Below, one piece after another: positions 1,203-54,739 of a stretch of 64,000 nucleotides of DNA. Numbering within the stretch: position 1 is the stretch's first letter; the number at the start of each line of letters is the position of its first letter. Origin of the DNA: an uncultured Actinomycetes bacterium (GTDB lineage: Bacteria; Actinomycetota; Actinomycetes; Streptosporangiales; Streptosporangiaceae); assembly GCA_963829725.1 (NCBI GenBank), contig CAWHJW010000005.1, positions 369,976 through 433,975 of the forward strand. The letters run 5' to 3'. The notes below the pieces were generated by a model, which saw only the letters and a list, made by a program, of their open reading frames with translations, had not been told where the DNA came from and searched no databases. The position numbers and the translations under genes were made by a program.

Positions 1203-1298
1203 TCGGGCGGGGCTTCCGCGGTGGTTCCGGGGGCCGGCCCCCGGGCCAGCACAGCAGTACCGCGTCGCTGGGCATGTCAGGGGTCTTCAGACGGCACA

Positions 1299-13572: not shown

Positions 13573-16077
13573 TCAGCCCTCGCCGGCGAAGGCCGCACCC
13601 AGCTCGCGGAAGGCGCCGCGCAGGTCGGCGGCCGAGACGGTGGTGAGGTCCGCGGCGCTGGCCTGATCGTCCAGGTGGGCCACCCGCACGTCGCGGGCCG
13701 CGCAGGCCCGCTCGAACAGGCTCCGGGCGAACCGGCCGTTCCCCAGCTCGTCGATCTGGCGGTGTTGTGCCGCCAGCGTGAAGATCTCCTCCAGCACCGG
13801 CAGCGCGTCCGGCTCGAAGCTGTCCCCGTGCTGCTCGGCGATGACACCGGCGATCCGGCACAGCTCACCGGGGGTGTAACTGGGGAAGCCGATCCGCACG
13901 CTGAACCGTGACCCGAGCCCGGGGTTGCTGTGCAGGAAGCGGTCCATGTCGGCCGGGTACCCGGCCAGCACGATCACCAGCCGGTCCCGGTCGTCCTCAG
14001 CCCGCTTGAGCAGCGTGGCCACCGCTTCCGAGCCGTAGGCGTCCCCGCCCGAGTAGCCGATGTTGTAGAGCGAGTAGGCCTCGTCGATGAACAGCACCCC
14101 GCCGAGCGCGGAGTCGATCAGCTTGCCCGTCTTGATCGCGGTCGAGCCGAGGTGCTCGCCGACCAGGTCGGCCCGGTGTGCCTCGATCACCTCCGGCCGG
14201 ACCAGCAGCCCCAGCGCGGTGAAGATCCGGCCGAGGATGCGGGCGACCGTGGTCTTGCCCGTCCCCGGGGGCCCGGTGAACACGAAATGCCGGACCGGGG
14301 GCTGGCTGGACAGGCCCTGCCGCTCCCGCAGCCGGGCCACCCGCAGCTGGGCCGCGATCTCGTGTACCTGGCGCTTGACCGGCTCTAGGCCAACCAGCTC
14401 ATCGAGTTCCGCGAGCGCGCTGTCCAGGGTGGGCGCCTCGGTGTAGCCGCGGAACCGTGCGGTCAGCTCGGCCCCGGCCCGCTCCAGGTCCGCCGCCTCC
14501 AGCGTGGTCAGCTCGGCGGGCGTCGGCTCGGCCCCGTCCGCCATCACCCGGACGTCCCGCGCCCGGCCCGCCTTCTCCAGGAGGTTGCGCACGAAGCGCC
14601 CGTTGCCGAGCTCGTCGGCGAGCCGGCGGCGGCCGATATCCTCCATCATCCGCCACAGGGCCGGCCGGGCGTCCGCGTCGAGCATCTCCCCGCGCTGCTC
14701 CAGGTACAGCTCGGATAGCGCCATCAGCTCGGCCGGGCTGTAGCTCGGGAACTTGACCCGGAGGCCGAACCGGGAGTTCAGCCCGGGGTTGCTGGCCAGG
14801 AAGCCCTCCATCTGCTTCTCGTAGCCGGCCAGGATGATGATGAGCTCGGACCGGTTGTCCTCGGCCCGCTTGAGCAGCGCCTGGACCGCCTCGTGGCCGA
14901 ACCGGTCCCCCTGGCCCTCACTCTCGTTCACCAGGCTGTAGGCCTCGTCGATGAACAGGACCCCGCCCATTGCACTGTTCACCAGGTCGTTCGTCTTGAT
15001 GGCGGTGGCGCCAAGGTACTCACCGACCAGGTCGGCGCGCTGCGCCTCCACCACCGCCGGGGTGTCCAGCAGCCCGAAGGCATAGAAGATCTTCGCGATG
15101 ACCCGGGCGACCGATGTCTTCCCGGTACCCGGCGGCCCGAGGAAGACGAAGTGCTGCATCGGCTTGCCGGTGTCGTAGCCGGCCATGGCCCGCCGCCGGG
15201 CGGCCTCCACCGAGGCAGTGATCTGGCGGACCTGTTCCTTGACCGATTCCAGGCCGATCATGTTCTCGAGCTCGGCCATGGCCTGGGCCACAGTGATCTC
15301 GGGCGGCTGCGGGTCAGCGCCGGCCCGCTCGCGCGCCGCCGTGGCATCCGCCGGGCGCACCGCGCCTTCCGCGGTCTGCACCACCCGGGCGGGATCCCCC
15401 GGCCGGCCGCCGCGCCCGGAGCCCGGGTACCCGGTGGTCCGGGCGCCGGGGCGGGGCGCCACGGCCGCGCTCCCAGGGCGGTGCGGCGCCGCGAGCGCGC
15501 CGCTCCGGGCCTGCTGGCGGCTGCGCGCCCGCGCCTCCTGCTGCGACTTGCCCAGCCGCCAGAGGAGCACACAGAGCGCGAGACCCCAGGCGATCGCGTC
15601 GCCGATCACCGGCCGGCTGGTCGCCAGCCACCAGGCCAGCAGGCCTGGCGGGAGCGACCAGACCATAGCCCACGCCACCGTCCGGCAGGGCACGTAGCGG
15701 CGGGAGATCGCCGGGGCGTGCGCCGCCGGGACGGCCACGCAGGGCAGGAGCGCCAGCGGGACGATCGCGGACCCGACCCGGTTGGTGACGGCGGCGACGA
15801 GGAGCACCGCCACCAGGCCCCAGACGGCGACGAAGACGGAGGCGAGCACCCGCCGGCTGCCCTGCCACGCAGCGACCGGCCCGTAACCAAGTGCAATCGC
15901 GATGACCAGGTCCCAGACCCGCGCGCCGAGGCTGAACGAGCCGACGATCAAGGCGACCAGCACGATGACCAGCAGGATCTTCACCGGCAACGGGGCTACG
16001 GCGATGGACCGGCGCACGCGCTCAAGCCCTTCCCGCGCCATTCGCCCGCCAGGTACGGACCTGTCCTCTGGCCGCAT
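13573..16077 (-). CDS. membrane-anchored protein with two tandem CbxX/SpoVK-type AAA+ ATPase domains
   Basis: The N-terminus has several hydrophobic helices (ILLVIVLVALIVGSFSL.., VFVAVWGLVAVLLVAAV..). Two modules follow, each with a Walker A (FLGPPGTGKTSVAR and FTGPPGTGKTTVAR) and a Walker B (GGVLFIDEAYSL, twice), plus LIIILAGY / LVIVLAGY and NGRFVRNL / NGRFARSL. Confidence 0.85.
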   Translation of the reverse strand: MRPEDRSVPGGRMAREGLERVRRSIAVAPLPVKILLVIVLVALIVGSFSLGARVWDLVIAIALGYGPVAAWQGSRRVLASVFVAVWGLVAVLLVAAVTNRVGSAIVPLALLPCVAVPAAHAPAISRRYVPCRTVAWAMVWSLPPGLLAWWLATSRPVIGDAIAWGLALCVLLWRLGKSQQEARARSRQQARSGALAAPHRPGSAAVAPRPGARTTGYPGSGRGGRPGDPARVVQTAEGAVRPADATAARERAGADPQPPEITVAQAMAELENMIGLESVKEQVRQITASVEAARRRAMAGYDTGKPMQHFVFLGPPGTGKTSVARVIAKIFYAFGLLDTPAVVEAQRADLVGEYLGATAIKTNDLVNSAMGGVLFIDEAYSLVNESEGQGDRFGHEAVQALLKRAEDNRSELIIILAGYEKQMEGFLASNPGLNSRFGLRVKFPSYSPAELMALSELYLEQRGEMLDADARPALWRMMEDIGRRRLADELGNGRFVRNLLEKAGRARDVRVMADGAEPTPAELTTLEAADLERAGAELTARFRGYTEAPTLDSALAELDELVGLEPVKRQVHEIAAQLRVARLRERQGLSSQPPVRHFVFTGPPGTGKTTVARILGRIFTALGLLVRPEVIEAHRADLVGEHLGSTAIKTGKLIDSALGGVLFIDEAYSLYNIGYSGGDAYGSEAVATLLKRAEDDRDRLVIVLAGYPADMDRFLHSNPGLGSRFSVRIGFPSYTPGELCRIAGVIAEQHGDSFEPDALPVLEEIFTLAAQHRQIDELGNGRFARSLFERACAARDVRVAHLDDQASAADLTTVSAADLRGAFRELGAAFAGEG

Positions 16078-16341
16078 CTTGCTCCCTCGTGCCGTTCCCT
16101 GTATAGCGCAATTACCACGCGCTTACAGCGACACACAACCAGATACCGGCAGAGAATGGCCAGGCCAGATTCTGCCACGCCGGCCCGGCGGGGGGATGAC
16201 CCCGCCGGTACTGCCCCCACGCGCCGTCGCTGACAGGGTAATCGACACACGGGCCGCGGGCGTCTCTGCGGATGATCTGGAGTTTCTGCGGGATAGCCCT
16301 GGGGCGGCTGTGCGGAATATATGCCGCACTTCGGGGACCGC

Positions 16342-17238
16342 TCAGGCTTCGAGACCGTCCACGAACGAGTAGGGCGGCCACGGGCCGTTCAGTTCGGCGC
16401 GCATCCCGGCCTGCCGGGCGGTGAGACCGTGCAGTACGGCGGTGAACCCGGCGGCCCGGTCGGGATCCAGGAGATAGGCGGCGTTCAGCGCCATCCACTC
16501 GCCACGGTCGGCGAAGTGCGGATCCTCGGCCGGCTGCCGCCGCGCGGACTCGGCCACGTCGCTCAGGGCCACGTCGATGAGGTCCGCGGCCGCCTCCGCC
16601 TCGGCCACCGCCTCCGGATCGCCCGGCCGGGCGTAGATCTGCACCCCCCACTCCACCCGGTTGCGGAACTTCTCCAGCAGCTCGGTGAATTCTCCTCGCC
16701 GGCTGCCCAGCAGGGCCCGCACGGTGGTGTCATCCGGGTGCAGCGTGGCGAGCCGGAGCGGCAGCACCGGGCCGCCCGCCGCGGCGCGCTCGATGACCCG
16801 GTGATGAGCCCGGCCGACCCGCTCGATGTTGTCCAGCCCGCCGAGCAGGCTGGCCAGCGCCTGCTCGCCGAACGTCCGGGCATCCACCGATCCGACCACC
16901 GCGGTGAGGCCGGCCGCGGTCACCGCGCGCACCGGCTCGCGGCCCACGCCGGTCATCCCGTCCAGCTGGCCGGGGCGGAGGCCGTCAGTGATGGCATAGA
17001 CCCAGATCACCTCGTCGGGCAGGGCACCCGGGGGCGGCGTGGCCAGGGCGTGGCCAGCCGCCGTGCGGCTGTTCCAGGGCCGGGCAGCCCGGTGCGTGCC
17101 CGGCCTGCGGGACGGCGGCCGGCTGGCCGGCATCCGGGCCGCAGGCAGCCTGGCCGCCGGCCGCCGGGCCGCACTCTGGCTCGTCATCATCGTCAGTGCC
17201 ATGTCACTCCTCCGCGGAGCGTCCGCCCCTGCTCGCAA
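16342..17238 (-). CDS. GvpL/GvpF family protein (orphan gas-vesicle-type protein)
   Basis: Family-typical pattern: VIWVYAITDG..MTGVGREPVRAVTAAGLTAVVGSVDARTFGE..LDNIERVGRAHHRVIERAAAGGPVLPLRLATLHPDD..EWGVQIY..AYLLD..NGPWPPYSF. The start is uncertain (17238 or ATG at 17202). Confidence 0.8.
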   Translation of the reverse strand: MRAGADAPRRSDMALTMMTSQSAARRPAARLPAARMPASRPPSRRPGTHRAARPWNSRTAAGHALATPPPGALPDEVIWVYAITDGLRPGQLDGMTGVGREPVRAVTAAGLTAVVGSVDARTFGEQALASLLGGLDNIERVGRAHHRVIERAAAGGPVLPLRLATLHPDDTTVRALLGSRRGEFTELLEKFRNRVEWGVQIYARPGDPEAVAEAEAAADLIDVALSDVAESARRQPAEDPHFADRGEWMALNAAYLLDPDRAAGFTAVLHGLTARQAGMRAELNGPWPPYSFVDGLEA

Positions 17239-20812: not shown

Positions 20813-23800
20813 TCAGCTGCAGCCACTGGTGGCTCCGCAGCCTTCGCAGACGTAGCAGCTGCCGGCCGGCCGCATCTTCGTGCCGCAGGTCAGGCAGAGC
20901 GGGGCGTCGGCGGTCCGGCCCTGCTGCGCCTCGACCAGCTCCACCGAGCTGTGCGGCTGAAGGCCGGGGCTCCCGGGGCTGCCCGGCTCTGGCTGGTCCT
21001 GGTGCCGCTCCGCGGGCCGCCGCACCGGCGCGGACTGGGCCATCTCCCCCGGGTCCTGCTCCTCCGCGAGCGCGGCCGGGTCCTCACCAGCCAGCTGGGC
21101 GGCCCGCTCGCCGGCGGCCAGGATGCCCATGTCGGCCCGGGTCTCGTAGGGCAGGTGGTCCAGCGCCAGGCGGCGGAACACGTAGTCCAGCACCGAGCTG
21201 GCGATCCGGATGTCCGGGTCGTCGGTGATGCCGGCCGGCTCGAACCGCATGTTGGTGAACTTCTCCACCCACTTCTCCAGCGGCACCCCGTACTGCAGGC
21301 TGATGGAGATGGCCATGGAGAAGGCGTCCATGACGCCGGCCAGGGTGGATCCCTGCTTGCCGAGCTTGAGGAACAGCTCGCCCACGCCGTCGTCGGGGTA
21401 CTTGGACGCCGTCATGTAGCCCTCTGCCCCGGCGACGGAGAAGCTGGTCACCGTCGCGGTGCGGTTCTTCGGCAGGCGACGGCGCACCGGGCGGATCTCG
21501 TGCGGCGAGTGGTCTGCCTCGGCGGCCGCCGCTTCCGGCTTCTTCCTCGCATCGGACAGCGGCTGGCCGACCTTGCAGTTGTCCCGGTACACCGCGAGCG
21601 CCTTGAGGCCGAGCTTCCAGCCCTGCAGGTAAATGGACTCGATGTCCTCGACCGTCGCCGATTCCGGAAGATTAACGGTCTTGCTAATGGCCCCGCTGAG
21701 TGCGGGCTGCACGGCGGCCATCATGCGCACATGACCCATGGGGCCGATCGACCGCTCGCCCATGGCGCAGTCGAATACGTCGTAGTGCTCCTGCCGCAGG
21801 CCCGGCGCATCGACGACATGCCCGTGCTCGGCAATGAACTCGACGATGGCTTCGACCTGCTCGGGCTGGTAACCCAGATTTTTCAGGGCCCGGGGCACGG
21901 TCCGGTTGACGATCTGCATCGAGCCACCGCCAACCAGCTTCTTAAATTTGACCAGAGCCAAATCCGGCTCGACCCCGGTAGTGTCACAATCCATCATCAA
22001 GCCTATGGTCCCGGTCGGCGCCAGTAGGCTCGCCTGCGCATTTCTATAACCATTCTTTTCGCCGAGCGCGAGGCATTTATCCCAAGCCTTATTGGCTTCG
22101 ACGAGGATTTCGGAATCCATTCCGCCGATGGTCTTGACCTGGCGGCTGGCCTCGGCGTGCTTGCGCATCACCCGCTTGTGCGCGGTGGCGTTGCGCTGAT
22201 AGCCGTCGTAGGGACCGACGACCGCGGCGAGTTCCGCGGACCGGCGGTAGGCGGTGCCGGTCATCAGCGAGGTGATGGCGGCGGCGATAGCCCGGCCGCC
22301 GTCGGAGTCATAGGCGTGCCCGGTCGCCATGAGCAGCGCGCCCAGGTTGGCGTAGCCGATGCCGAGCTGCCGGAAGGCCCGCGTGATCTCCCCGATCTTC
22401 TCAGTAGGGAAGTCCGCGAAGGAGATCGAGATGTCCATCGCGGTGATGATCAGCTCGGTGATCTGGCGGAACCGGTCCACCGCGAACGTGTCGTCGTCGC
22501 GCAGGAACTTCAGCAGGTTGATGCTGGCCAGATTGCAGGAGGAGTTGTCCAGGCTGAGGTACTCGCTGCACGGGTTACTGGCGGTGATCCGGCCCGACTC
22601 GGGGTTGGTGTGCCAGTCGTTGATCGTGCCGTCGTACTGGATGCCCGGGTCCGCGCACGCCCAGGCCGCCTGGGCCATCGTGCGGAACAGCGTCCGCGCG
22701 TTCAACGGTTTCCACGACCTCGCCGGTCATCCGGGCCAGCAGGTCGAACTGGCCGCCCTGTTCCACCGCGCGCATGAACTCGTCGGAGACGCGGACCGAG
22801 TTGTTCGCGTTCTGGTACTGGACGCTGGCGATGTCCTTGCCGCCGAGGTCCATGTCGAAGCCGGCGTCCCGGAGGACCCGGACCTTCTCTTCCTCGCGGG
22901 CCTTGGTCTCGACGAACTCCTCGACATCGGGGTGGTCCACGTCGAGCACGACCATCTTGGCGGCCCGGCGGGTGGCGCCCCCGGACTTGATGGTCCCGGC
23001 CGACGCGTCCGCGCCGCGCATGAACGAGACCGGGCCGCTGGCCGTGCCGCCCGAGGACAGCAGTTCCTTGCTGGACCGGATCCGGGACAGGTTGACCCCG
23101 GCGCCCGAGCCGCCCTTGAAGATCAGGCCTTCTTCCTTGTACCAGTCCAGGATCGAGTCCATCGTGTCATCGACGGCCAGGATGAAGCAGTTGTGCACCC
23201 GGAGATTCCCGGAGAGGTACTCACCGCTCTCGGTCTGGATGTCGAAGACCTCCATGGGCCCCAGCGCCTCGATGCGCTCCAGCTCCACCACATGGCGGTC
23301 CGCACCGCCGACTTCAGGCTCCACTTGCAGGAGCGAATCACCCGCGCTGAGGTCGCCTGCCGGAATGAATGCGCCGTTAGCGATATCAGCCGCCCGCCAC
23401 ACGAGGTGGTCGGCGGTGACATCGAGGGTGTAACCCGCCTTGGTGTGCAGCCGGAGCACGTCCTTCACCCCGTTGGCCTTGGTGGCCAGGATCTTGGTCA
23501 GGCCATGCGCGTCGTACACCTTCGTCCCGACCGCATTCTCTGTCACCAGCCTGCCGATGGGCACCAGCCCGGCGGGGGTGCTCACCAAGGCGTCATAGGG
23601 CTGGCAGGCTGACACCTGCTGCGGGGAGTTGGTGCCGACGTTGAACCAGACCGGGGAGTTGAAGCTGAAGATCTGGTGGGTGAGCGCGTGGCACAGCTCG
23701 TGCTCGAAGATCTCGGCGTCTTTGGGGGTGGCGAAGTAACCGTGCTCCCGGCCGGCGGCCACGTACGTGCCTACCACCCGGTTGACCAGCTGCTTGAGGC

Positions 23801-29872: not shown

Positions 29873-30301
29873 CTCCGTGGTCCTGCCGCCCGCCGCGCGG
29901 CCCGCGGCCGGGCGGCTGCCACACTACCGGGTGACTTTGCGCCGGCCGCGAGGCGGTTAATATCCCTGTGAAATGGGCTCAGCCGCGCATAATCCCATGT
30001 CCCGCATTCGAGTTGACCACCGCAACTGAATCTGAATAAGGTCACCTGCGTTCGCGGCGGCACCCGCACGGGCGGCCTACGCTGCCTGGGCAGGGCGCGC
30101 CTGCGTTCCCCAGCGGAGAGATGCCGGGTACGGTCCGCGCAGGTGAGAACGGGTGGCATACTCCCAGCGACGGGAGTGGCACCCGCTCGCGACAGGCACG
30201 GCCGACAGGCAAAGGCAGCGAAATCGCATCACTTCCGGAGAAACAATGGACGTTGCGGGGCGAGCATGGAGTTCCCGTGACCTGGACAGAGACAATGGCT
30301 G

Positions 30302-33300
30302 GTGGATACGACCGCGGAATCCATTGCGTTGACGCCTGAGCGTTCCGCGACCGGCGATCGCGCCGCCCCCATCGCCATCGTCGGCCTGGCCTGCCGGTTC
30401 CCGGACGCGGACGACCCCCTGGCCCTGTTCGAGAGCGCACTGGCCGGGCGGCGCGCGTTCCGCCGGATGCCGCCCGGACGGGCCGGCGGCGCGCCCGGCC
30501 GCCACCCCGGCTGGAACGGGCAGCATGGGCTCGCCGCCGGGCGCCCGCCGCGGGCTGCCCTGCTGGAGGGATGGGACTTCGACCGCGCCGGGTTCGGCAT
30601 CACCGAGCCCGCCTACCGGGCCGCCGACCCGGCCCACTGGCTCGCCCTGGAGACGGCCGGCGGCGCGCTGGCCGACGCCGGGTTCCCGGGCGGCCAGGGG
30701 CTGGCCGCCGACCGGGCCGGCGTCATCGTCGGGAACACCCTCACCGGGGAGATCGCCCGGACGGCGGCGCTGCGCAGCCAGTGGCCGTTCGTCTCCGCCG
30801 TGTTGTCCGGGGCGCTCGCCGCCCGGGACATCCCGGCCGGAGAGCGGGCCGCGGTGCTCGAGCACGCGGCCGCCGCCTTCGCCGCCCCGCTGCCCGGCGC
30901 CTCGCCCGCTACCCTGGCTGGCGCCCAGCCCGGCGCGATCGCGGACCGGATCAGCCGGCATTTCCAGTTCCGCGGCGGCGGCTACGCACTGGATAGCGCG
31001 CACGCGTCGTCACTGCTCGCCGTGGCCACCGCCTGCGCCCTGCTGGCCGCTGGCGAGCTGGATTTCGTGCTCGCCGGGGGCGTGGACATCAGCCTGGACC
31101 CGTTCGAGCTGTCCGGCCTGGCCCTGGCCGGCGTGCTGGCGGCCGGGGCCATGCGGATCTACGACGCCAGCCCGACCGGGTTCCTGCCCGGCGAAGGCTG
31201 CGGGATGGTCGCCCTGATGCGGGCGGACGACGCCATCGCGGCCGACATGCCGCGGTATGCGGACATCGCGGGCTGGGGCATCTCGTCGGCGGGCCGCTCC
31301 GGCCCCGTTTCCGCCGACGCGGGCACCCAGCTGCTGGCGCTGCAGCGCGCCTACCAGCGGGCCCAGGTCGATCCGGCGGATATCCAGCTCATCGAGGGCG
31401 ATGGCCGCGGCACCGCCGACGCTGACCTGGCCGAGCTGACCGCGCTGAGCGCGATCCGGTCCGGGGCCACGGCCGCGGCGGCGCTGGGCTCCGTCAAGGC
31501 CAACATCGGTCATGCCAAGGCGGCCGCGGGGGCGGCTGGGCTGATCAAGGCGGCTCTGGCGGTCAACGCCGGCGTAATCCCGCCGACGACCGGGTGCGGT
31601 CACCCGCACCCGGTACTGACGGATGAGGACGCGGTGCTCCGGGTGCCCCGCTCGGCTGAGCCGTGGCCGGCCGGCCATCGCCTCGCGGCGGTGACCGCCA
31701 CGGATCCGGCCGGCGCCGCGGTGCACGTGGTGCTGCGCCGGGAGCGGAATCAGGGCAGCGGCCCAGGCGCCGGGCTGTCGCTGCAGCGCCCGTCGCCGCT
31801 CGCCACCTGGTCGGTTCCGCGGGTGCCCCGGGCCGAGGTTTTCGCGTTCAGCGGTCCGGACCGGGAGGCGGTGGCCGCCGCGCTGCGCACGGTGGCCGGG
31901 GTGGCGCCGGGCCTGTCGGACAGCGAGCTGAGCGATCTCGCCTGCCAGCTCGGCCGCACGCCGGAGCCCGGGGCGGCCCGGGTGGCGCTGGTGGCCGCCA
32001 CCCAGGAAGAACTGGCCCGGCTGTGCGCGGAAGCGGCGGCGCTGCTGCCCGGCCTGGAGCCGGGCCGGCTGGCCGCCCGCCCCGGGCTGTTCGCCGCCGA
32101 CCGGGCGGCCGGCCGGGTGGTGCTGCTGTTCCCGGGAGAAGCGGTGGTCACCGCGGGGGGCCACGACTCGCCGGGGCGCGTGTCGCCACCCGCGCTGGTG
32201 CAGGCGTCGCTGGCCGCCCTGCGCTGGCTGGGCACGCTCGGCCTGCGCGCAGCGGCGGGGGTGGGCGTGGGCGTGGGCGAGATCACCGCGCTCACCTGGT
32301 CCGGCAGCCTGGCTGAAGCCGATGCGGCCACCCTGATCGCGGAGCGGGCGGCGGTGCTGAGCGCGGCGGCCGACCTGCGCACGGCGCTGATCTGCGTGAC
32401 CGCGGACGAGGAGGCCGTGCGCGCGCTACCCGCCGCGGCCGGCCTGGCCATTGCCGGGCATTATGGGCCACGCTGCCACATCCTGGGCGGGGCCGAGGAG
32501 GCCGTCGCCAGCCTTGCCCGGCAGGCGGCGCAGGCCGGGATCCAGGCCCGCCTGCTGGACCTGCCTTACGCGCTGCACTCCCCCGCGATGACCGACCTGG
32601 CCGCACCGCTGCGGGCCGCGGCGGCCCGAGCCCGGTTCGCTGCCCCGGCCCGGCGGGTGATCTCCACGGTGACCGCCAGTGAGGTCACCTCCGGCACCGA
32701 CCTGCCCGCGCTGCTGGCCAGCCAGCTCACCTCGCCGGTGCGGCTGGCCGCGGCGCTCAGCGTGGCGGCGGCCGGCGCCGACCTGCTGCTCGACACCGGC
32801 CCGGGCCAGGCGCTGGCCACCCTGGCCGCGGGCTGCTGTGCGGTGCCGGCGGTCAGTCTCGGCGGCGGCCCGGACAGCGCCGCGGCGCCGGGCGCCACGG
32901 CGGCGCTGTTCGCGGCCGGCGCGATCGGGACCCTGGCCCCGCTGCTGGCCGGGCGCCCGTCGCGCCCCTTCGACATCGCCCGCACGCCGCGCTTCCTGAC
33001 CAACCCGTGCGCCGTGGTGACGGCGGAGCCGGCCACCACCGGCCACCGGCCAGCGGGCCGGGCCACGGCGGACGCGCCTCCGGACGGCGCGCCGGGATCG
33101 TGGCTGCCGGACCCCGGCCCGGCGGCACCGCGGCGGCGGACCGGGTCCCGGGTGCGGCCGGGCGCCGCCGGCCTGGCTGCGGCAGGGCCTGATGGGGCGG
33201 CCGGTGCCGGGACCGGCGGCCCCGGCACCGCCGCCACCGGCGAGCAGGTCCCGGGCGTCGCACCCTGGGTCCGGTGCTTCGCCGAGGAACTCCGACCGCT

Positions 33301-35936
33301 GCCGCTGCCCCCCGCCCCCGCCGACGAGGAACCGTGGCGGTTGCATGCCACCACGCGCCAGCCGTTCGGTCGGATGGCAGCGGAGGTGTTCGAGGACGAT
33401 CCGGCCGCCGATAGCGTGCTCGCGGTGATCGGCGACCTGGCCGATCCGGACGGGACCGGGACGCTGCTGGCGGCCGCGCGGGAAGCGGCCGGGGCCGGCA
33501 GTTTCGTGGTGATCACCCCGGCGGCCGGCCTGGAGGGCTTCTGCGCCGGGCTGCATGCGGAGCATCCGTCGCTCGGCCTGACCCTGATCCGCACCGCGGA
33601 CAGCATGAGCGGGCTGATCGCCGCGCAGCGTTTCGCCGCGACCGAGCCCGGCCAGTTCCGGCAGGTGGTGCTGGATGCCAGCGGCGGGCCGCAGCGGCCC
33701 GTCATGGGGGTGGCCGGCCTCCCCGCCGCGCCCGCGCCGGACGGCTTGCCCGGCCCAGCCCCCGGCCGCGCCGACGTGGTGCTGATCACCGGCGGGCAGC
33801 CTGGGAACCTGCTGGCGGCTGCGGGCGTGCTGGCCGGGTCCGGAGCCCGGCTCGCCCTGATCGGGCCGCCCGACCCGGATGAGCCCGCGGCCATGGACCT
33901 GGCGCTGGCCGGCCTCCGGGACGGCGGCGCCGAGGTCAGCTACCTGCAGGCCGACCTCACCGACCCCGACGAAGCCGACGCGGCCGTGGCCAGCGTGGAG
34001 CAGCGGGTCGGCCCGGTGACCGTGGTCTGCTACGCGGCAGGCACCGGGCCGGCCAGCGCATGTTCCGGCCTGTCCGCCCCGGACCTGCGGGCCCGGATGT
34101 CGCGCCAGGCCGACGGGCTGCGCAGTGTGCTGGGCAGCGTGAACGCGGCCCGGCTGCGGCTGCTGCTGACCGCGGGCAGCGCGGCCGCGCGCTACGGCAC
34201 CGCGGGCCAGTGCGGGCCTGCGCTGCTCGCGGGGGCACTGGCCGAGCAGGCCCGGCGGCTCGAGCCCAGCCTGCCCGGCTGCCGGATCCTGCACGCCGAC
34301 TGGGACCCGGACCTGGCCGCACCGGATGAGGTGGGCCGGCTGCTGCTGGGCAGCGTGGCCAGCCAGCAGGCACCGGCCCGGGTGGCCATCCACGGGCGGC
34401 TGGGCCCGGGCGTGGCCGGCACCCCGGGTCCCGGGACCGGGCTGGTGGGCGGGGGGCGCTTCCTGGAGCACGCCCGAGTGCACTACCCGGGCGTGGAACT
34501 GGTGGCCAGAGGCCGGCCTCTCGCTGGGCTCGGATCCCTACCTGGCCGACTACCTGCTCGACGGCCTCGCGGCCCTGCCCCCGGCGATTGGACTGGAGGC
34601 GATGGCACAGGCGGCCTCCGCCCTCGCGGGGCGGCCGCTCCGGCGGCTGGCCGGGGCGATCATGGAGGTGCCGGTCCTGCTCCCGCCCGGCGGGACGGAC
34701 ACCACGTTGCGGGTGTGCGCCCTGCGGGCCGGCGGCACGGTGGAGACCGTGCTGCGGTACTCCGGCAGCGGCTTCCATCTCGATCACTTCCGCGCCGTGT
34801 TCCCGCTGGAGGACGCGCCCGGGCCAGCCAGCCCCGGTCTGCGGGGTGAGCCGACCGCCCGGACGGGCCTGACCGTGACCGCCCCGGGCGGCGTCGTGGA
34901 CGGCACCGACCTGTACGGGCGGATCTGCTTCCAGGCTGGCTCGTTCCGCCGGGTGGCGTTCCTGCCCGAGGTCACCGCCCGTTCCTGCCGCGCCCTGGTG
35001 CGCGGGGCTGACGACCGGCCCTGGTTCAGCGGGCCGGCCACCGTCCGTGGCCCGCTCATCCTGGGCAGCCCCGGCCTGAACGACGCCCTCATGCACGTGC
35101 TGCAAGCCTGCGTCCCGCACCGCCGGGTCCTCCCAGCCGGCTTTGAGTCGCTCACAGCCGCCGGCGAGGAGGTGCGCGGCGCGGTGAGCGTCGAGGCCGG
35201 ACAGCGGGCCGACGGCGGGTGGGACGTGATTGCGCTGGACGCGACCGGGCACCCGGTGCTGGCCGTGACCCGGCTGCGGCTGCGGGACATGGGACCGCTC
35301 GAGCAGCACGCCCCCTGGCACCCGACCCTGCTGGCCGCGGCCCTGGAGGCGCACGGCACCGAACTCGGGCTCCACCCGTCGCTCCGGGCCACGGTGCGCT
35401 GCGGCCAGCCGCCGGCCACCGGGAGCCACCTGGCCGCCCCGGACCCGGCGGCCGCCGCCGACGGCCTGCCGTGGCTGGATCAGGCCGTGGGCACCGGGGC
35501 GCTCGCCGGTTACGAGCTGACGGTACGGGCCGGCCAGCCGATCGCCTGTTACTGGGAGGCGACTGGCAACGGCACGGCCACACTCACCAGCCCCGGGAAT
35601 CTGGCCAGCCCAGAGACACTGGCGAGCCCCGAGGATCTGGCCAGGCAGTTGCGTGACCGGGGCAGCGGCGACCCGGCGGCCGTGAGCACCCGGGTGCGCG
35701 CCATCACCGCGTGCCTGACCGCCGCGGGCTGGTCCGGCCGGACCCCGCTGCAGCTGGACGACGCGCACGACGGCGAATGGATCCGGGTGCGGGCCGGGAG
35801 CATCACCGTGGCCGCGGTGGCCGCGCGGATCGACGGGGTATCCCAGCCAGTCGTGATCGCCCTGGCCACCTGGCCGGGAACGGCGCACGACCCGGCTGAC
35901 CCGGGGATGCTGGCGCAGGGCGCGCCGGGACGCTAG
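30302..35936 (+). pseudogene. iterative type I PKS homologue (enediyne PKSE / PUFA-synthase-like KS-AT-KR-DH-C-terminal domain) with substituted catalytic motifs, one extra base at 34508
   Basis: The KS-like N-terminus reads IAIVGLACRFPDADDP..LAGRRAFRRMP..GNTLTGE..GGGYALDSAHASSLLAVATAC..FLPGEGCGMVAL..IEGDGRGT..GSVKANIGHAKAAAG. The AT-like part reads LLFPGE..GVGVGVGEITAL..YALHSPAM. The KR-like part reads VVLITGGQPGN. The DH-like part reads DPYLADYLLDGLAALPP. The frame changes at ..HYPGVELVA / EAGLSLGSDPY.. and the length is 3n+1. It starts at the GTG at 30302. Confidence 0.8.
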
Positions 35937-35970: not shown

Positions 35971-36132
35971 TCACAGCTTGGTCAGCTTGGTGTACGGAGC
36001 AGCGATCCGCTCCTGCTGGGTACCGAAGTCAACCAGCACACCAGTCTCGTCGGCACTGATGACCCGGCCGAGGCCGTAACGGTCATGGGTTACCTGGTCC
36101 TGCACGGCGAACTGCTTCACCGGGCGGATCAT
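35971..36132 (-). CDS. small Tudor-like protein resembling the PcrA/UvrD C-terminal domain (DUF3553-like)
   Basis: 53 aa: MIRPVKQFAVQDQVTHDRYGLGRVISADETGVLVDFGTQQERIAAPYTKLTKL. Confidence 0.6.
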   Translation of the reverse strand: MIRPVKQFAVQDQVTHDRYGLGRVISADETGVLVDFGTQQERIAAPYTKLTKL

Positions 36133-36295
36133 GGGGGGCTTGTTGAACGGGCTTCCGGGCAGGGGGCGCCGGGTCGCGGCATGATCGATTCTCACCCTCT
36201 CAGTATGCGCCAGGCCGCCCGGGCCCCGCGGCCACACGCGGCAGACGGCCGTAACGAAACGGACGCACTCCAGGCAAACCACGCCAGCTCAGGGG

Positions 36296-37777
36296 TCAGG
36301 CGGGCAGCCGTTCCGGGCCCGCCTGGGGTCCGGCCCGGCTGGCTCGCCAGGCCGCCTCCGCCTCGCCCATCGGGGTAGCCGGCGGACCCTGCATGAACGG
36401 CCAGATCTCCTCGGCGATGCCACGCCAGTCCGCGGTCGCGGCCAGTTCGCCCAGGATCGCGAACAGGCCCAGGTTGATCCGCTGCAGGATGACGTAGGAC
36501 CGGGGCACGCTCACGTACGCCGCCAGCGGGCTGCGCAGGTCGAAGAACCGCCGTACCACCGCCGAGGCGTAGTCCCCGGTCATGGTCACCGGGCCCGGCC
36601 GGCGGACCGTGTCGTAGAACACGGCCATGTGCTCAACGACGGTCTCGGTGCTCAGCGGCGTGTCAGGGCGCAGGAACCCGGCCTGGATCATGCTGGACCG
36701 GAACGCCTCCGGGTCATCCTCCACGCACAGGTAGCGCACCATGTCCATCAGCGGCTGCAGCTCGCCGGGGCTGAAGTGCTTGACCAGCCCGAAGTCGAGG
36801 AACGTCACCCGGCCGCCCCCATGGAACAGGTAGTTGCCGGGGTGCGGGTCACCGTTGAACGCCTGCGCCTCATACAGGCTCCGGAAGGTGAACCGGTAGA
36901 TGGTCTCCGCGGCCAGGTCCCGCTCGTGCTGGGACCAGCTGGCCAGCTCAGCGAACCGGGCGCCGTCGGCCAGGTCGGTGGTCACCACCCGCCGGGTGCA
37001 CAGCTCGCCGACGATGTCCGGGATGTGCACGGTCGGGTGGCCCCGGTAATGGTCGGCGAACAGCTGCTGGTTGCGGGCTTCCCGGCGGTAGTCCAGTTCT
37101 TCCAGCACGCGCTCCCGCAGCTCGCCGAGCAGCTCGTCCACGTCCTGGCTGGGCGCGGTGATCCGCAGCATGCGCCGCAGCAGGGCGACGTTCTGCAGGT
37201 CCGCGGCAATGGTCTCGGCGATGCCGGGGTACTGGACCTTGACGGCGACGGCCCGGCCGTCCCGGGTGATCGCCCGGTGCACCTGCCCGATCGAGGCGGC
37301 CGCGATGGGCTCCCCGTCCCACCGCGCGAACACCTCCTCGGGCGGGCGGCCGAACTCCTCGGTGATGACGCCCGCGGCCAGCTCGGCGGTCATCGGCGGC
37401 ACGCTGTCCTGCAGCCGGCTCAGCGTCCGGCGGACCGCCGGGGACAGGCCGTCGTCCACGTAACTGGCCATCTGGCCGATCTTCATCAAGACGCCCTTCA
37501 TGGCGCCCAGGGTGGTGGCGACGTCCTCGGCGGTCTGCAGCGCGAGGTCGTTGCGCAGCTGCTGGCGGTGCTCGCCGGCCAGGATGAACAGCCGCGGCGC
37601 GTTGCCCGCGTAGCGGACCCCGCCGCGCACCGCGAGCCGCACCGCGGCGCCGCCCCGGGACATCCGGAGCCGCAGCGGGCGGCCGTGGCCCGGCACCCGC
37701 CAGCCCAGCCGCCGGCCGAGCAGGACGAGGCCGGCCAGCGAGGCCCCGATGGTGAACCCGGTGACCAGCTTTCTCAC
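36296..37777 (-). CDS. ABC1/UbiB/AarF family atypical kinase
   Basis: ..MKIGQMASYVDDGLSP..EPIAAASIGQVHRAIT.DGRAVAVKVQYPGIAETI..VVTTDL..FNGDPHPGNYLF..VTFLDFG.. Confidence 0.85.
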   Translation of the reverse strand: MRKLVTGFTIGASLAGLVLLGRRLGWRVPGHGRPLRLRMSRGGAAVRLAVRGGVRYAGNAPRLFILAGEHRQQLRNDLALQTAEDVATTLGAMKGVLMKIGQMASYVDDGLSPAVRRTLSRLQDSVPPMTAELAAGVITEEFGRPPEEVFARWDGEPIAAASIGQVHRAITRDGRAVAVKVQYPGIAETIAADLQNVALLRRMLRITAPSQDVDELLGELRERVLEELDYRREARNQQLFADHYRGHPTVHIPDIVGELCTRRVVTTDLADGARFAELASWSQHERDLAAETIYRFTFRSLYEAQAFNGDPHPGNYLFHGGGRVTFLDFGLVKHFSPGELQPLMDMVRYLCVEDDPEAFRSSMIQAGFLRPDTPLSTETVVEHMAVFYDTVRRPGPVTMTGDYASAVVRRFFDLRSPLAAYVSVPRSYVILQRINLGLFAILGELAATADWRGIAEEIWPFMQGPPATPMGEAEAAWRASRAGPQAGPERLPA

Positions 37778-38784
37778 GGGCGCCGCGCCGCGCGCGCCCG
37801 CAAGGCGATCCGCTGCCGGGCTTCCAGCACGCCCGGCTCGCCCATGAACACGGTGTCCAGCACGCCGAGCGCCTGGCGGATCTCGGCCCGCCGGGCGTCG
37901 GTCAGCGGCGGCACCTCGTACCCGTACATCTCGCGGGCCCAGTCAGGCAGCGTGCCGAGCGCGGCGTGCCGCACGTCCTGCCAGATCTCGGCGATGTCGG
38001 CCTCCAGGCCGGGCGGGTCGAGCAGGTAGTCCATGGATTCCCGGGCCGCCGGGGTGCAGCGCAACTCGGGCCTTACCGCGCGCAGGTAGGCATCGAGGGC
38101 CGGAACGCTGTCCGGGACGCGGTCGCGGGGCACCCCGACGAGTTCCGCCGCAGTCACTTGTTCCGCGACAAATTGCCCGCTCTCCTCAGCTGACAATGCC
38201 GTCCCGAACTGTGCGGCGGCGGCGAGGCCAGAATCGATGAAGGTGGCGTGCACGTAGAGCAGCAGGGCCGGGTCGCTGGCCGCGTACGGCTGGCCGGTCA
38301 CCGTGTCCACCCCGGTGACATGGTCGTGGATGCGCCGCACCCGGCCCGCGGCCCGCTCGGCGGCGGCCCGCTCGGCGAAGCTGACCGTGGCCAGGTAGGC
38401 GGAGGTGGCGGCCAGGCGGCCGACGGGATCCCGGCGCCAGTTGCTGTGCTGGTCCACCCCGGCCATGGCTAGCGGGTGCAGCGCCTGCAGCAGCAGCGCG
38501 CGCAGGCCGGCCACCGGCGAGGACAGGTCCGTGCTCACCCGCCAGGTGACGCTGCCGGGGCCGAAAAAACCCTCGTCCGCCGGGGCGTCCGGGATGCTGG
38601 CCGCATAGGCGGCGGCCGACCGGGCGACCAGGTCGGCCGCGGCCGCGTACGGGTCCGCGGTCACCGGGCTGGCCTGGTCATCGTGGCATGCAGGGTCATC
38701 GTGGCATGCAGATGCGGGGTCCTCATACCAGCCAAAATACCCAGCCACGGCGGGACCAAGGCCGGCCCGGACCTGGTACCGCAC
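37774..38784 (-). CDS. MpaB/DUF2236 family oxygenase-like protein
   Basis: ..FFGPGSVTWRVSTDLSSPVAGLRALLLQALHPLAMAGVDQHSNWRRDPVGRLAATSAYL..RVRRIHDHVTG.. A 4-bp overlap links it to the downstream kinase gene. Confidence 0.75.
   Translation of the reverse strand: MRYQVRAGLGPAVAGYFGWYEDPASACHDDPACHDDQASPVTADPYAAAADLVARSAAAYAASIPDAPADEGFFGPGSVTWRVSTDLSSPVAGLRALLLQALHPLAMAGVDQHSNWRRDPVGRLAATSAYLATVSFAERAAAERAAGRVRRIHDHVTGVDTVTGQPYAASDPALLLYVHATFIDSGLAAAAQFGTALSAEESGQFVAEQVTAAELVGVPRDRVPDSVPALDAYLRAVRPELRCTPAARESMDYLLDPPGLEADIAEIWQDVRHAALGTLPDWAREMYGYEVPPLTDARRAEIRQALGVLDTVFMGEPGVLEARQRIALRARAARRP
38676..38711. repeat. 18-bp perfect in-frame tandem duplication in the MpaB-like gene
   Basis: ggtcatcgtggcatgcag occurs twice. 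It is translated as ACHDDP-ACHDDQ in the N-terminus. Confidence 0.9.
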
Positions 38785-38893
38785 CGTGCTGGCTCAAACT
38801 GAGAACCGCCCGGCTGGTGAGCAGGGGTACGGATGATGCAACGGCCTGCACCACGTGCCGCACTGGTGCCACCGTCCTGCGAAGGAGCAGCCG

Positions 38894-42748: not shown

Positions 42749-44068
42749 GTGCCCGCAGGCGGCCCTTCCCGCGGTGGCCCGGCCACCCGCATCCCGGCCA
42801 CCGCAGCCACGGCCGGGCCGGCGCCGGCCGCCCCTGCGGTGAACCTGTCCGACGACGCGTTCTGGGCGCTGCCCCTCACTGACCGGCACGCGGCCTTCGC
42901 GGCGCTGCGGCGCCTGCCCCGGCCGCCGTTCTTCGCCGAGCCGGCGGTGCCGTTCGCCGATCCAGGCCGGGGCTATTATGCGCTGGTCCGGCACGCTGAC
43001 GTGGCCGAGGCCAGCCGGAACCCGGCGGTGTTCTCCTCGGGGAAGGGCGCGACCAGCGTCGTCAACCTGCCAGTGGAATTCAACGAGTACTTCGGCTCCA
43101 TGATCAACGTGGACGATCCCCGGCACGCCCGGCTGCGCCGGATCGTGTCCCGGGCGTTCACCCCCCGCATGATCAGGAAATTCGAGGACGACGTGTGCAG
43201 GGTGGCCGCCGCGGTCGTGGACGGCCTGCTGGCAGACGGCCCGGGTGACTACGTCGAGCAGGTCGCCGCCCGCATCCCGCTCACCGTGATCTGCCAGATG
43301 ATGGGGATCCCGGAGAGCAGCCATGACATGGTGCTGCGCGACACCAACATCATCCTGTCCGGCTCGGACCCCGATTTCCTCAGTGAGGATGCGGACGAGG
43401 CAGTGGGCCAGTTGCTCGGGGCCGGCCAGGAACTGGCCGAACTGGTCACCGAGCTCCGCGAGGCCCGGCTGCGGGAGCCCGCCGACGACCTGATTACCGC
43501 GCTGGCGCTGGCCAACATCGACGGGGAGCAGCTGACCAGCGCCGAGCTCGCCTCGTTCTTCGTGCTGCTGGTGGTGGCCGGCAACGAGACCACCCGCACC
43601 GCCCTCTCGCACGCGCTGGTCCTGCTCACCGAGAACCCGGCGCAGCGGGCACTGCTCCGGGCCGATTTCGAAGCCAGGATCGGCGGCGCGGTCGAGGAGG
43701 TGGTCCGGATGGCCTCCCCGGTCATGTTCATGCGGCGCACGCTGGCCTGTGACTACTCGATGAACGGGCAGGACTACCACCGCGGTGACAAGGTGGCGCT
43801 GTTCTACTGGTCGGCCAACTACGACGAGGACCTGTTCCCCGACGGGGAGGTCTTCGACATCACCCGCGCGCCGAACCCGCACCTCGGTTTCGGTGCCGCG
43901 GGCCCGCACTTCTGCCTGGGCGCGCACCTGGCCCGGCGGGAGATCACCGTCACGCTCCGCGAGCTTCTGAGCCGCGTCCCGGACATCAGCGCGGCCGCGC
44001 CCCCGGACCGGCTCCGGTCCAGCTTCATCAACGGCATCAAGCGCCTGGACTGCACCTTCACCAGCTGA
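42749..44068 (+). CDS. cytochrome P450
   Basis: I-helix VVAGNETT, EVVR (ExxR), and heme loop FGAAGPHFCLGAHLAR. The GTG at 42749 with a GGAAGG RBS is preferred over the far-upstream ORF limit at 42479. Confidence 0.85.
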   Translation: MPAGGPSRGGPATRIPATAATAGPAPAAPAVNLSDDAFWALPLTDRHAAFAALRRLPRPPFFAEPAVPFADPGRGYYALVRHADVAEASRNPAVFSSGKGATSVVNLPVEFNEYFGSMINVDDPRHARLRRIVSRAFTPRMIRKFEDDVCRVAAAVVDGLLADGPGDYVEQVAARIPLTVICQMMGIPESSHDMVLRDTNIILSGSDPDFLSEDADEAVGQLLGAGQELAELVTELREARLREPADDLITALALANIDGEQLTSAELASFFVLLVVAGNETTRTALSHALVLLTENPAQRALLRADFEARIGGAVEEVVRMASPVMFMRRTLACDYSMNGQDYHRGDKVALFYWSANYDEDLFPDGEVFDITRAPNPHLGFGAAGPHFCLGAHLARREITVTLRELLSRVPDISAAAPPDRLRSSFINGIKRLDCTFTS

Positions 44069-50704: not shown

Positions 50705-50761
50705 GCCATCTAGCTCCTAGCGTGGACCTCAGCACCCCGCGAAACCAGGAGGGACATCCCC

Positions 50762-51253
50762 ATGACCGAGACGCAGACCAGGCCGCAGATCCCGGCACGG
50801 CTCGACTTCGACACCCAGGCGGCGGTCTTCTCCCGCGCCATGAACCACCTCGATCAGGCCGCCACCAGGCAACTCGATCAGGCCGGAATCGACCACCAGC
50901 TGCGCGAGCTGGTCCGGATCCGGGTCTCACAGCTGAACGGCTGCGCCTACTGCATCGACATGCACACCAAGGACGCGCGCGCCGCCGGGGAGAGCGAGCA
51001 GCGGCTGTACGCGCTGCCCGCCTGGCGCGAGGCACCGTACTTCACCAGCCGCGAACGGGCCGCGCTGGCCTTTACCGAGGCCGTCACCCTGCTCGCGGAC
51101 ACCCACGTCCCGGCGGAGGCCTACCAGAGCGCCGCCGCGGTATTCACCGGCGCGGAGATGGCCGCACTGGTCGCCCTGATCGTCACCATCAACGCCTGGA
51201 ACGCCATCGGCGTAGCCACCCGGACCTGGATCCCCGGCTCCTACGAGCCATGA
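50762..51253 (+). CDS. carboxymuconolactone decarboxylase (AhpD-like) family protein
   Basis: ..LRELVRIRVSQLNGCAYCIDMHTKDA..WREAPYFTSRERAALAFTEA.. It is divergent from the MocR-type regulator. Confidence 0.8.
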   Translation: MTETQTRPQIPARLDFDTQAAVFSRAMNHLDQAATRQLDQAGIDHQLRELVRIRVSQLNGCAYCIDMHTKDARAAGESEQRLYALPAWREAPYFTSRERAALAFTEAVTLLADTHVPAEAYQSAAAVFTGAEMAALVALIVTINAWNAIGVATRTWIPGSYEP

Positions 51254-51356
51254 ACCTGCCTGCCGCAGGCCTCCGCACGCTGGCCGCCGACCAAGGCTAC
51301 CCGCGAGTAGGGGCGGCGACGTAGGGTCATGGGCAATCGGCGGAAGGGACCTGGGC

Positions 51357-52562
51357 ATGGCGGCACCAGTCATCGATGATCTTGAATTGCCGGTATTCGA
51401 CTACACCGACCCGGACCTGGTCGGCGAGGTCTACCACCAGCGGCTGGCCGCGATCCGGGCGCAGGGCTGGCTGGCCCGCTCCCCGCTCACCTACGTGGTC
51501 CTGGACCGCGAGTCCGGCGAGTTCTTCCTGCGCACCCGGGACGCGGCCTTCCCCGGCCGCGAGATCGCCGACCTGTTCGGGATCACCGGCGGCCGACTGC
51601 GCGAGCAGATCGACGTCAACATCCTCAACCAGACCGGCGGCCGGCACCGGCGGCTGCGCGGCCTGATCAGCCCGGCGTTCACCCCGCGCGCCGCGGACCG
51701 CTGGCGGCCGGCCATGCGGGGCTTCCTGGCCGGCCTGTGGGCTGATCTCGGCGGCGCGGCCGGGTGCGAGTTCGTGTCCGCGTTCGCCAAGCCCTACCCG
51801 TCGCTGACCATCGCCGCCGTGCTCGGCGCGCCGCCCGAGGACGCGCCGCGGCTGCACGAGTGGTCCGGCTGGGTGCAGCGGCAATTCGACATCAAGGCAC
51901 TGGCCACCGAGCCGGACCGGATCGAGAAGGCCGTCGGCGAACTGTACGACTACGTCGAGGCCCTGCTGCAGCGCCGCCGTCGCGAGCCCGCCGGGGACCT
52001 GATCAGCGCGCTGCTGGCGGCCGAGGACGAGGGCGAGAGACTGACCCACGCCGAGTGCGTCAACCTGGTGCTGAACGTGGTGGCCGGCGGGGTGGACACC
52101 ACTCAGGCGCAGTTGTCGCACGCGATGCGCCTGTTCGCCACGCACCCCGCCCAGTGGGCCGCGCTGGCCGCCGATCCCGGCCGGGTGCCCGCCGCCGTGC
52201 AGGAGGTGCTGCGGTTCGAGCCGATCACCCCGTTCACCGCCCGGATCGCCGTCGCCGACCTGACCCACCGCGGCGTGAGGTTCCCGGCCGGCACGATCGT
52301 GGCGATCTGCGCGGAACGGGCCAACCGCGACGCCGAGGGGGGCGAGCAGTTCGATATCGGCCGGGAGACCGCCGCCCGGCTGCTGACCTTCGGAGCCGGA
52401 CCGCACTTCTGCCTGGGCTCGAACCTGGCCCGCGCGGAACTGGAGGAGGCCCTGGCCTTCCTGGTCCCCCGGATGCCCGGGCTGCGCCTGGCCGCCGAGC
52501 CCCGCCTGGGCGGCGTGGAGGGCATCTACGGCATCGACTCCCTCCCCCTCGCCTGGACCTAG
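51357..52562 (+). CDS. cytochrome P450
   Basis: ..VVAGGVDTT.., EVLRFEP (ExxR), and heme loop FGAGPHFCLGSNLARAE. Confidence 0.88.
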   Translation: MAAPVIDDLELPVFDYTDPDLVGEVYHQRLAAIRAQGWLARSPLTYVVLDRESGEFFLRTRDAAFPGREIADLFGITGGRLREQIDVNILNQTGGRHRRLRGLISPAFTPRAADRWRPAMRGFLAGLWADLGGAAGCEFVSAFAKPYPSLTIAAVLGAPPEDAPRLHEWSGWVQRQFDIKALATEPDRIEKAVGELYDYVEALLQRRRREPAGDLISALLAAEDEGERLTHAECVNLVLNVVAGGVDTTQAQLSHAMRLFATHPAQWAALAADPGRVPAAVQEVLRFEPITPFTARIAVADLTHRGVRFPAGTIVAICAERANRDAEGGEQFDIGRETAARLLTFGAGPHFCLGSNLARAELEEALAFLVPRMPGLRLAAEPRLGGVEGIYGIDSLPLAWT

Positions 52563-54663: not shown

Positions 54664-54739
54664 TGGTGGGGCCGATGGGATTTGAACCCATACTGCCAGG
54701 ATCCTAAGTCCTGTGCCTCTGCCATTGGGCTACGGCCCC
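54664..54739 (-). tRNA. 76-nt tRNA, anticodon UAG (Leu/CUA by anticodon), short variable loop, encoded CCA
   Basis: GGGGCCG-TA-GCCCAATGGCAGAGGC-A-CAGGA-CTTAGGA-TCCTG-GCAGT-ATGGG-TTCAAAT-CCCAT-CGGCCCC-A-CCA. The 7-bp acceptor, 5-bp anticodon stem and 5-bp T stem are perfect. U33, G37, GG in the D loop and TTC in the T loop are present. Confidence 0.85.

Follow-up and report, generated by a model that had tools for sequence, protein, structure and literature searches.

Results

Gene structure and domain organization

The window analyzed here, a 64,000-nucleotide stretch of contig CAWHJW010000005.1 from an uncultured Actinomycetes bacterium, carries at 30302–35936 on its plus strand a large gene related to those of the iterative enediyne-type polyketide synthases (PKSEs), which we call pseudo-PKSE. 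The findings described below make it probable that pseudo-PKSE is a domesticated, catalytically dead descendant of such a polyketide synthase (PKS). The gene comprises 1,877 codons once base 34508 is removed. As assembled, it is covered by two overlapping plus-strand open reading frames (ORFs; 30302–34849 and 34326–35936), with a +1 offset located within a few bases of 34508, where a single extra 'a' (34508..34508, +) splits the frame. A 100% identical protein fragment from an independent ENA assembly (P0004) reads HYPGVELVAEAGLSLGSDPYL / HYPGVELVAEAGLSLGSDPYLADYLLDG unbroken over this junction, and the break was therefore ascribed to an assembly error. The G+C content at third codon positions (GC3) of the fused ORF was 0.90–0.94 in each 600-nt slice (about 0.92 overall). 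The read-through and the GC3 profile bear out an earlier note on this DNA, according to which one indel interrupts 1,877 open codons with strong GC3. Its further remark that indels occur all over the assembly fits the genes for ParC (topoisomerase IV/gyrase A-like, 1203–3840) and ParE (gyrase B-like, 4248–6489), each of which is divided into two overlapping same-strand ORFs by a further single-base indel error.

The encoded 1,877-aa protein showed the layout ketosynthase (KS)–acyltransferase (AT)–ketoreductase (KR)–dehydratase (DH)–C-terminal domain. The KS-like domain (aa 22–430; 30365–31591, +) was delimited by Pfam (N and C halves, E 3e-38 and 4e-26), by alignment to structures in the PDB and by family columns, and the AT-like domain (aa 630–824; 32189–32773, +) by Pfam (E 7e-15) and PDB alignment. 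Downstream of them lie the KR-like domain (aa 1160–1304; 33779–34213, +; Pfam E 5e-11 and alignment with intact PKSEs), the DH-like double hot-dog domain (aa ~1385–1665; 34454–35297, +; Pfam PS-DH, E 3e-7, and PKS_DH_N, E 3e-4, together with family columns) and a C-terminal domain (35298–35933, +), homologous by alignment to the phosphopantetheinyl transferase (PPTase)-type domain of intact PKSEs. Between AT and KR, intact PKSEs carry an acyl carrier protein (ACP) domain with the motif LLSDLHLxSL, and this segment of theirs matched the solved ACP of CalE8 (2L9F, E 3e-7). In the window protein and in all its close relatives the ACP is gone, and alignment with intact PKSEs places there a Pro/Ala/Gly-rich linker that varies in length and sequence (aa ~905–985; 33014–33256, +). 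Thus, of the PKSE order KS-AT-ACP-KR-DH-PPTase, five of the six domains are present in the window protein and the ACP is missing. Identity to intact actinobacterial PKSEs was 40–41% over 98% of the protein. All NCBIfam matches fell far under their cut-offs, including NF045894 PKS_plus_SDR (285 bits, cut-off 1,740) and the PfaA model TIGR02813 (omega_3_PfaA; 217.9 bits, cut-off 1,010.1).

State of the catalytic positions

The register of KS and AT was set by residue-level alignment to solved PKS structures (PDB), and that of KR, DH and the C-terminal domain by alignment to intact PKSEs from cultured Amycolatopsis, Streptomyces, Nonomuraea and others, with acidobacterial and proteobacterial examples. 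In the KS, the Cys motif reads DSAHASSL, with the Cys replaced by His234 (CAC, 31001–31003), and EAHGTGT reads EGDGRGT, with the first His replaced by Asp367 (GAT, 31400–31402), while the second His is kept as His404 (31511–31513; KANIGH over KTNIGH). The triad of the window protein is thus His234, Asp367 and His404, not Cys-His-His. In the AT, for which DynE8 was the closest solved structure (4amn, E 7e-41), GHSLGE has become GVGVGE (GHSxG to GVGVG) and the nucleophilic Ser is Gly657 (32270–32272); Arg682 and the His of ALHS are kept. The NADPH-binding glycine loop of the KR, GGGKGIG, reads GGQPGNL, the catalytic Lys is Gln, and ECHYALANG reads QCGPALLAG (FGSVIGRYGLAGECHYALANG to AGSAAARYGTAGQCGPALLAG), which exchanges Tyr for Pro and Asn for Ala. 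In the DH, HxxxGxxxxP corresponds to YLLDGLAALP, with Tyr1417 (TAC, 34551–34553) at the place of the His; the catalytic Asp is kept (Asp1594).

In the C-terminal domain, the Mg-binding Asp/Glu motif is substituted (ACDWE to ACYWE, consensus ACDxE), and in the alignment with intact PKSEs VWTALECLSKIG is replaced by RAITACLTAAGW, with WxxxExLxK becoming RAITACLTA. An AF2 model of this domain (pLDDT 78.5) had no PDB fold match at E <= 0.001. The C-terminus of an intact PKSE, compared by sequence with the PDB, likewise returned no PPTase, and Pfam gave only sub-threshold 4PPT_N and ACPS matches. The label 'PPTase-like' should be understood as resting on the alignment with PKSEs and on the published assignment, reportedly made by Zhang et al. 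in PNAS in 2008.

Because the ACP, the KS Cys, the AT Ser and the KR loop and catalytic residues are lost, the protein would not be expected to load, carry, condense or reduce acyl groups. Judged by its sequence, the lost carrier, nucleophiles, cofactor site, DH His and PPTase motifs show a protein that should be unable to act as a polyketide synthase. The earlier note had proposed, from motifs alone, both the homology to PKSEs and the register in KS, AT, KR, DH and C-terminal domain. The homology was confirmed by the Pfam domains, by the identity to intact PKSEs and by the tree described below, and the register by the solved PKS structures and the intact PKSEs; the three codons that it had placed at 31001–31003, 31400–31402 and 34551–34553 proved exact, and none of the alignments brought back the Cys/His/His triad, the AT Ser or the KR Tyr. 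Its statement that every catalytic residue it could locate is substituted was true of most positions and did not extend to His404 of the KS and Asp1594 of the DH.

Pseudo-PKSE belongs to a clade of degenerate PKSE homologues

A homologue search over 5.8 billion proteins yielded over 5,000 relatives, among which the top full-length sequences are 81%, 72% and ~59% identical to the window protein; many relatives are annotated by JGI as 'enediyne polyketide synthase'. Among the top 120, the KS Cys position was His in dozens and Gln, Ser, Gly or Arg in others. In a neighbour-joining tree (1,394 columns, computed without support values), all 101 homologues lacking the AT Ser formed a single clade with no Ser-bearing sequence within it, sister to the intact actinobacterial PKSEs. 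The AT Ser position was Gly in 99 of these 101 sequences and Ser in each of 25 intact PKSEs. Around 90 clade members were returned as full-length proteins of ~1,760–2,270 aa, and the remaining ~11 were truncated, for which contig ends or long-read indels are a plausible cause.

Within the clade, the KS triad was found in a variety of states, i.e., HDH as in the window protein (40 sequences), HHN (11), QHN (11), SHH (10), CNH (9), CHH (8) and several singletons, and the DH His position held His 43 times and Tyr 57 times. Such differences among positional orthologues are expected if the chemistry at those sites no longer matters. Several independent losses of the KS nucleophile appear to have occurred. 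In the simplest history that the sequences suggest, the ACP and the AT Ser were lost once, early on, and the remaining catalytic positions then drifted separately in individual lineages. Residues invariant in intact PKSEs and lost in the clade included Cys234, Thr229 and Phe273 in the KS, Gln613, Ser657, Asn721 and His759 in the AT, and Asn1249, Lys1269, Tyr1306 and Asn1310 in the KR.

Column conservation in the clade was highest in the KS (0.73), the DH (0.67), the pseudo-KR (0.63) and the KR (0.60) and lowest in the AT (0.48), the C-terminal domain (0.46) and the linker (0.18). In about half of the clade members (P0047–P0066 and their relatives), the alignment has gaps over part of the AT (query aa ~696–759), which suggests that the AT may be dispensable for the present role of the protein; many of these members also lack a Pfam AT match. 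Among the GTDB representatives, the clade was found to have no cultured member. A candidate, L017 (Streptomyces sp. NPDC052101), which reads 'MG' at the AT column, was rejected, as it has the ACP motif and groups with the true PKSEs.

Selection on the protein sequence

Ratios of nonsynonymous to synonymous substitution rates (dN/dS) were calculated by the Nei-Gojobori method (NG86), with the window gene and its orthologue at locus L001 (87% aa identity) as the reference pair. The whole gene gave a value of 0.32, and the individual domains gave 0.20 (KS), 0.27 (AT), 0.36 (KR), 0.32 (DH) and 0.33 (C-terminal domain). The linker that replaces the ACP reached 0.62; it evolves almost neutrally and serves as an internal control. 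More distant pairs of orthologues gave 0.38–0.44 for the whole gene and 0.24–0.29 for the KS. The pseudo-PKSE protein sequence is under purifying selection. For comparison, seven neighbouring genes of the same genome pair had values of 0.12–0.22.

Conserved position beside leuS and absence of the enediyne cassette

The genomic surroundings were analyzed in a GTDB scan with one genome per species, in which 80 of the 594 relatives found were kept and residues and neighbours were mapped by tblastn. All 23 degenerate loci in this set adjoin leuS, with nrdR likewise inside the 10-kb flank at 22 of them, a context found at none of the intact PKSE loci. Precomputed gene calls gave the order NrdJ-NrdR-LysM-LexA-LeuRS(−) / pseudo-PKSE(+), and the metagenome-assembled genomes (MAGs) with degenerate loci are labelled as uncultured Actinomycetes, uncultured Actinomycetota and Streptosporangiaceae. 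This conserved placement next to leuS marks pseudo-PKSE as a positional orthologue that is passed on vertically within one lineage of soil actinomycetes, all of them uncultured. The remaining genes of the window are of the housekeeping type, among them those for ParC/ParE, the principal sigma factor, a SpoIIE-type phosphatase, NrdJ/NrdR, LexA and LeuRS.

ORFs flanking the intact PKSE gene of Streptomyces abikoensis (L036) were then searched for at 20 intact and 22 degenerate loci and in the window. Three of these neighbours recurred at 17–19 of the 20 intact loci, and Pfam identified them as DUF1702 (UNBL), FG-GAP/UnbV_ASPIC (UNBV) and a 4HBT_2 hot-dog thioesterase. UNBL, UNBV and the thioesterase were found at 0 of the 22 degenerate loci and nowhere in the window, and the minimal enediyne cassette is therefore absent here. 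The earlier note had reported that no cassette partners flank the gene, which holds over the whole 64 kb. Its description of the gene as stand-alone stood as far as cassette genes are concerned and was less apt in another respect, as in distant orthologues a cytochrome P450 gene lies directly downstream.

In the window, this syntenic partner is a CYP124/125-like P450 gene at 42839–44068 (+). In distant orthologues (HHN, CNH, SHH), the P450 gene follows pseudo-PKSE on the same strand at ~80–170 bp or after one inserted gene, and its product matched mycobacterial lipid/sterol omega-hydroxylases with E 1e-106; such orthologous CYP124/CYP125-like genes lie at 15836–17146 of locus L084, 16424–17681 of L085 and 17577–18842 of L086. 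In the subclade of the window, ~6 kb has been inserted between pseudo-PKSE and the P450 gene, with genes for a 74-aa protein, an ABC1/UbiB-like protein, an MpaB/Lcp-like protein, YaaH, SIR2 and a protein with a Lon N-domain.

Conserved blocks upstream of pseudo-PKSE

The intergenic region upstream of the gene (~440 nt) contains two blocks that are nearly invariant in nucleotides among nine orthologous loci, and a profile search found both of them in ten loci, with a weak match in L005. Over the same comparisons, pseudo-PKSE itself had synonymous divergences (dS) of 0.2–0.75. The first block, delimited by cross-locus conservation, is AT-rich (29953–30055, +) and holds TTGACC (30013–30018), an 18-nt spacer and TAAGGT (30037–30042). 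The actinobacterial promoter consensus is TTGACN / TANNNT, and the TTGACC-N18-TAAGGT block is therefore promoter-like in sequence; this site was not called in a generic sigma-70 scan.

The second block, the leader (30215–30339, +; cross-locus conservation), includes a purine run resembling a Shine-Dalgarno sequence and a 14-codon upstream ORF (uORF), MAGGYDRGIHCVDA, which runs from the ATG at 30295 to the TGA at 30337–30339, so that its stop overlaps the main start region. The length of 14 codons is the same in nine of ten loci. Because substitutions in the leader block showed no third-position bias in either frame, it may function at the RNA level or as an operator instead of encoding a peptide. 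A search of the upstream leader against Rfam at gathering and lenient thresholds returned no known RNA family. Together, the conserved promoter-like block and leader suggest that expression of pseudo-PKSE is regulated. The annotated GTG start (30302) falls within this leader, and the orthologues begin at an ATG aligned with window position 30332 (ACG here); on these grounds, TTG at 30329 may be the true start codon instead of the GTG at 30302.

Discussion

Interpretation and alternative explanations

Pseudo-PKSE has the look of a pseudoenzyme put to a new use, and not that of an antibiotic gene or of a pseudogene in decay. Once a PKSE ancestor had lost its ACP and AT Ser at an early stage, the other catalytic positions would have drifted lineage by lineage, and the protein would now act non-catalytically, via its fold. 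As KS, pseudo-KR/KR and DH are best conserved, whereas constraint is weakest in the AT and the C-terminal domain and one sub-branch has lost part of the AT, the protein would likely serve as a dimeric scaffold or bind a hydrophobic or acyl ligand. Among its neighbours, the CYP124/125-like P450 and the ABC1/UbiB-like protein raise a possible, weak link to lipid metabolism. The preference of the earlier note for a non-catalytic or repurposed function over decay is supported by the dN/dS values and the intact orthologues. Its notion of a pseudo-PKS held as regards register and selection and is refined here, since the gene is not isolated and belongs to a large, monophyletic, syntenic family of orthologues.

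Several observations weigh against this interpretation. The non-catalytic role is inferred only, and the C-terminal model matched no solved fold in the PDB. The dN/dS of pseudo-PKSE is about twice that of its neighbours, which indicates that the constraint is real yet relaxed, and NG86 values at 92% GC3 are approximate. Six genes separate pseudo-PKSE from the P450 gene in the window, and the adjacency seen elsewhere may lack functional meaning, because the whole region is syntenic. Moreover, His234, Asp367 and His404 scarcely vary within the HDH subclade of 43 members, and new chemistry at these sites is conceivable. In the subclade of the window, the KS pocket could have been rebuilt around them as a conserved metal-binding or new catalytic site, for example a 2-His-1-carboxylate-like site or a hydrolase/decarboxylase centre. 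The three triad positions are spatial neighbours in KS folds, 40 of the 43 sequences carry H, D and H at KS pairwise identities down to 58%, and the KS is the most constrained domain (dN/dS 0.20). If that were so, a 1,877-aa PKSE shell would be a neo-enzyme or ligand sensor of a kind not known from megasynthases, and not an inert scaffold. Nevertheless, we regard it as unlikely, since positional orthologues in sister subclades carry HHN, QHN, SHH, CNH, GCN and other states with no shared chemistry, and one member of the HDH subclade has Arg at the first site. We also rejected the H/D/H invariance as proof of a new active site in itself, as 26% of the KS columns are equally invariant in this subclade. 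Partnering is a frequent fate of pseudoenzymes, and the dimer-forming KS is the best conserved part of the protein, which would fit a dead subunit that heterodimerises with, or regulates, an active PKSE encoded elsewhere, in the manner of the chain-length factor of type II PKSs. This seems quite improbable for a gene that resides in the housekeeping core and not in a biosynthetic cluster; a weak further point is that no intact PKSE from the same MAGs was present among the 80 loci kept of the 594 relatives found.

The readings of pseudo-PKSE as a decaying pseudogene and as a trans-complemented PKS are contradicted by the data. In DNA of 78% GC stops are rare, and a remnant of an enediyne cluster might stay open for that reason alone; the frame break at 34508 in the window assembly, the loss of all activities, dN/dS values above those of the neighbours and the ~11 truncated homologues among 101 would agree with decay. 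The frame break is absent from the independent assembly, though, and other essential genes are split likewise; about 90 orthologues keep ~1,900 codons in frame down to ~40% identity; dN/dS is 0.2–0.4, not near 1, with the linker alone at 0.6–0.7; and both the synteny and the upstream blocks are conserved. The earlier note had named orthologues full of stops and relaxed dN/dS as marks of a pseudogene, whereas ~90 of the 101 are full-length and the ratios are 0.32–0.44 for the gene and 0.20–0.29 for the KS. Decay is in our judgement highly improbable. Similarly, it is very unlikely that the protein is still a polyketide synthase to which a separate ACP, AT and PPTase are supplied in trans from other loci. 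Other classes of PKS do include trans-AT and discrete-ACP systems, the eight CHH sequences of the clade keep Cys/His/His in the KS, and about half of the clade keeps the DH His. Yet the KS nucleophile, the KR cofactor loop and the KR catalytic residues are gone from the window protein, and no ACP, AT, thioesterase or cassette gene was found in the 64-kb window or at 22 orthologous loci.

Relation to known systems

Pseudo-PKSE resembles the PKSEs SgcE, CalE8 and DynE8 in length and in the domain order KS-AT-[ACP]-KR-DH-C-terminal. It differs from them in lacking the ACP, the KS Cys, the AT Ser, the KR loop with Lys, Tyr and Asn, the DH His and the PPTase-type motifs, and in its place in the chromosomal core beside leuS, without UNBL, UNBV or thioesterase neighbours. 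PfaA-type polyunsaturated fatty acid (PUFA) synthases are related iterative KS-AT...KR-DH proteins, as reflected in the TIGR02813 score of 218 bits; this score is far below 1,010, and the window protein has neither tandem ACPs nor pfa operon partners. A KS fold without its nucleophile is also known from KSQ loading domains and chain-length factors (Cys to Gln) and from the KS0 domains of trans-AT PKSs, and some members of the clade have Gln at the Cys position (QHN). In those cases, one dead domain operates inside an active synthase with carrier proteins, whereas the window protein is dead in every domain and its carrier is deleted.

Pseudoenzymes are well known among kinases and proteases, and pseudo-PKSE shares with them, e.g., with bacterial pseudokinases, a conserved fold, the loss of catalytic residues and purifying selection. 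In the literature surveyed, which left subscription journals outside its coverage, neither an inactive PKSE family nor a whole six-domain megasynthase as a pseudoenzyme is described. If our interpretation is correct, the PKS fold is useful beyond the making of polyketides, and the clade provides a natural experiment on how a synthase loses its activities one after another, the carrier domain and the AT Ser being missing in every member. KS-tag surveys assign soil enediyne KS sequences to Actinobacteria (PMC10308959), and sequences of this clade may be counted there as enediyne biosynthetic potential that they cannot deliver. A practical filter for the clade would combine a missing ACP, Gly in place of the AT Ser and leuS as an adjacent gene.

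Other features of the window

Convergent with pseudo-PKSE, at 35971–36195 (−), lies the gene for the small conserved protein of ~74 aa that the earlier note had called 'Tudor-like'. This protein is 80–97% identical within the subclade and had no Pfam or NCBIfam match. Next in coordinate order, also on the minus strand, are the genes for the ABC1/UbiB-like atypical kinase (36296–37777) and the MpaB/Lcp-type oxygenase-domain protein (37774–38793), which probably form an operon, given that they overlap by 4 bp. The ABC1 protein had a sub-threshold NCBIfam match to 'macrolide-binding ATPase MABP-1' (207 bits, cut-off 800). In the MpaB-like coding region, ARAGORN called a 93-nt tRNA-Pro(agg) (38577–38669, +) that lacked Rfam support and is probably a false positive.

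At the orthologous loci L002 (1–3037) and L086 (1–3920), the class II ribonucleotide reductase NrdJ contains one or two inteins that bear LAGLIDADG domains; the NrdJ ORF fragment of the window (20813–22726) had no intein domain. A second, more distant P450 gene, whose product is ~31–35% identical to the syntenic P450, is located at 51216–52562 (+) and has before it, on the same strand, an overlapping ORF at 50714–51253, which may reflect another indel split. Lastly, a tRNA-Leu(tag) gene at 54664–54739 (−) was backed by both ARAGORN and Rfam.

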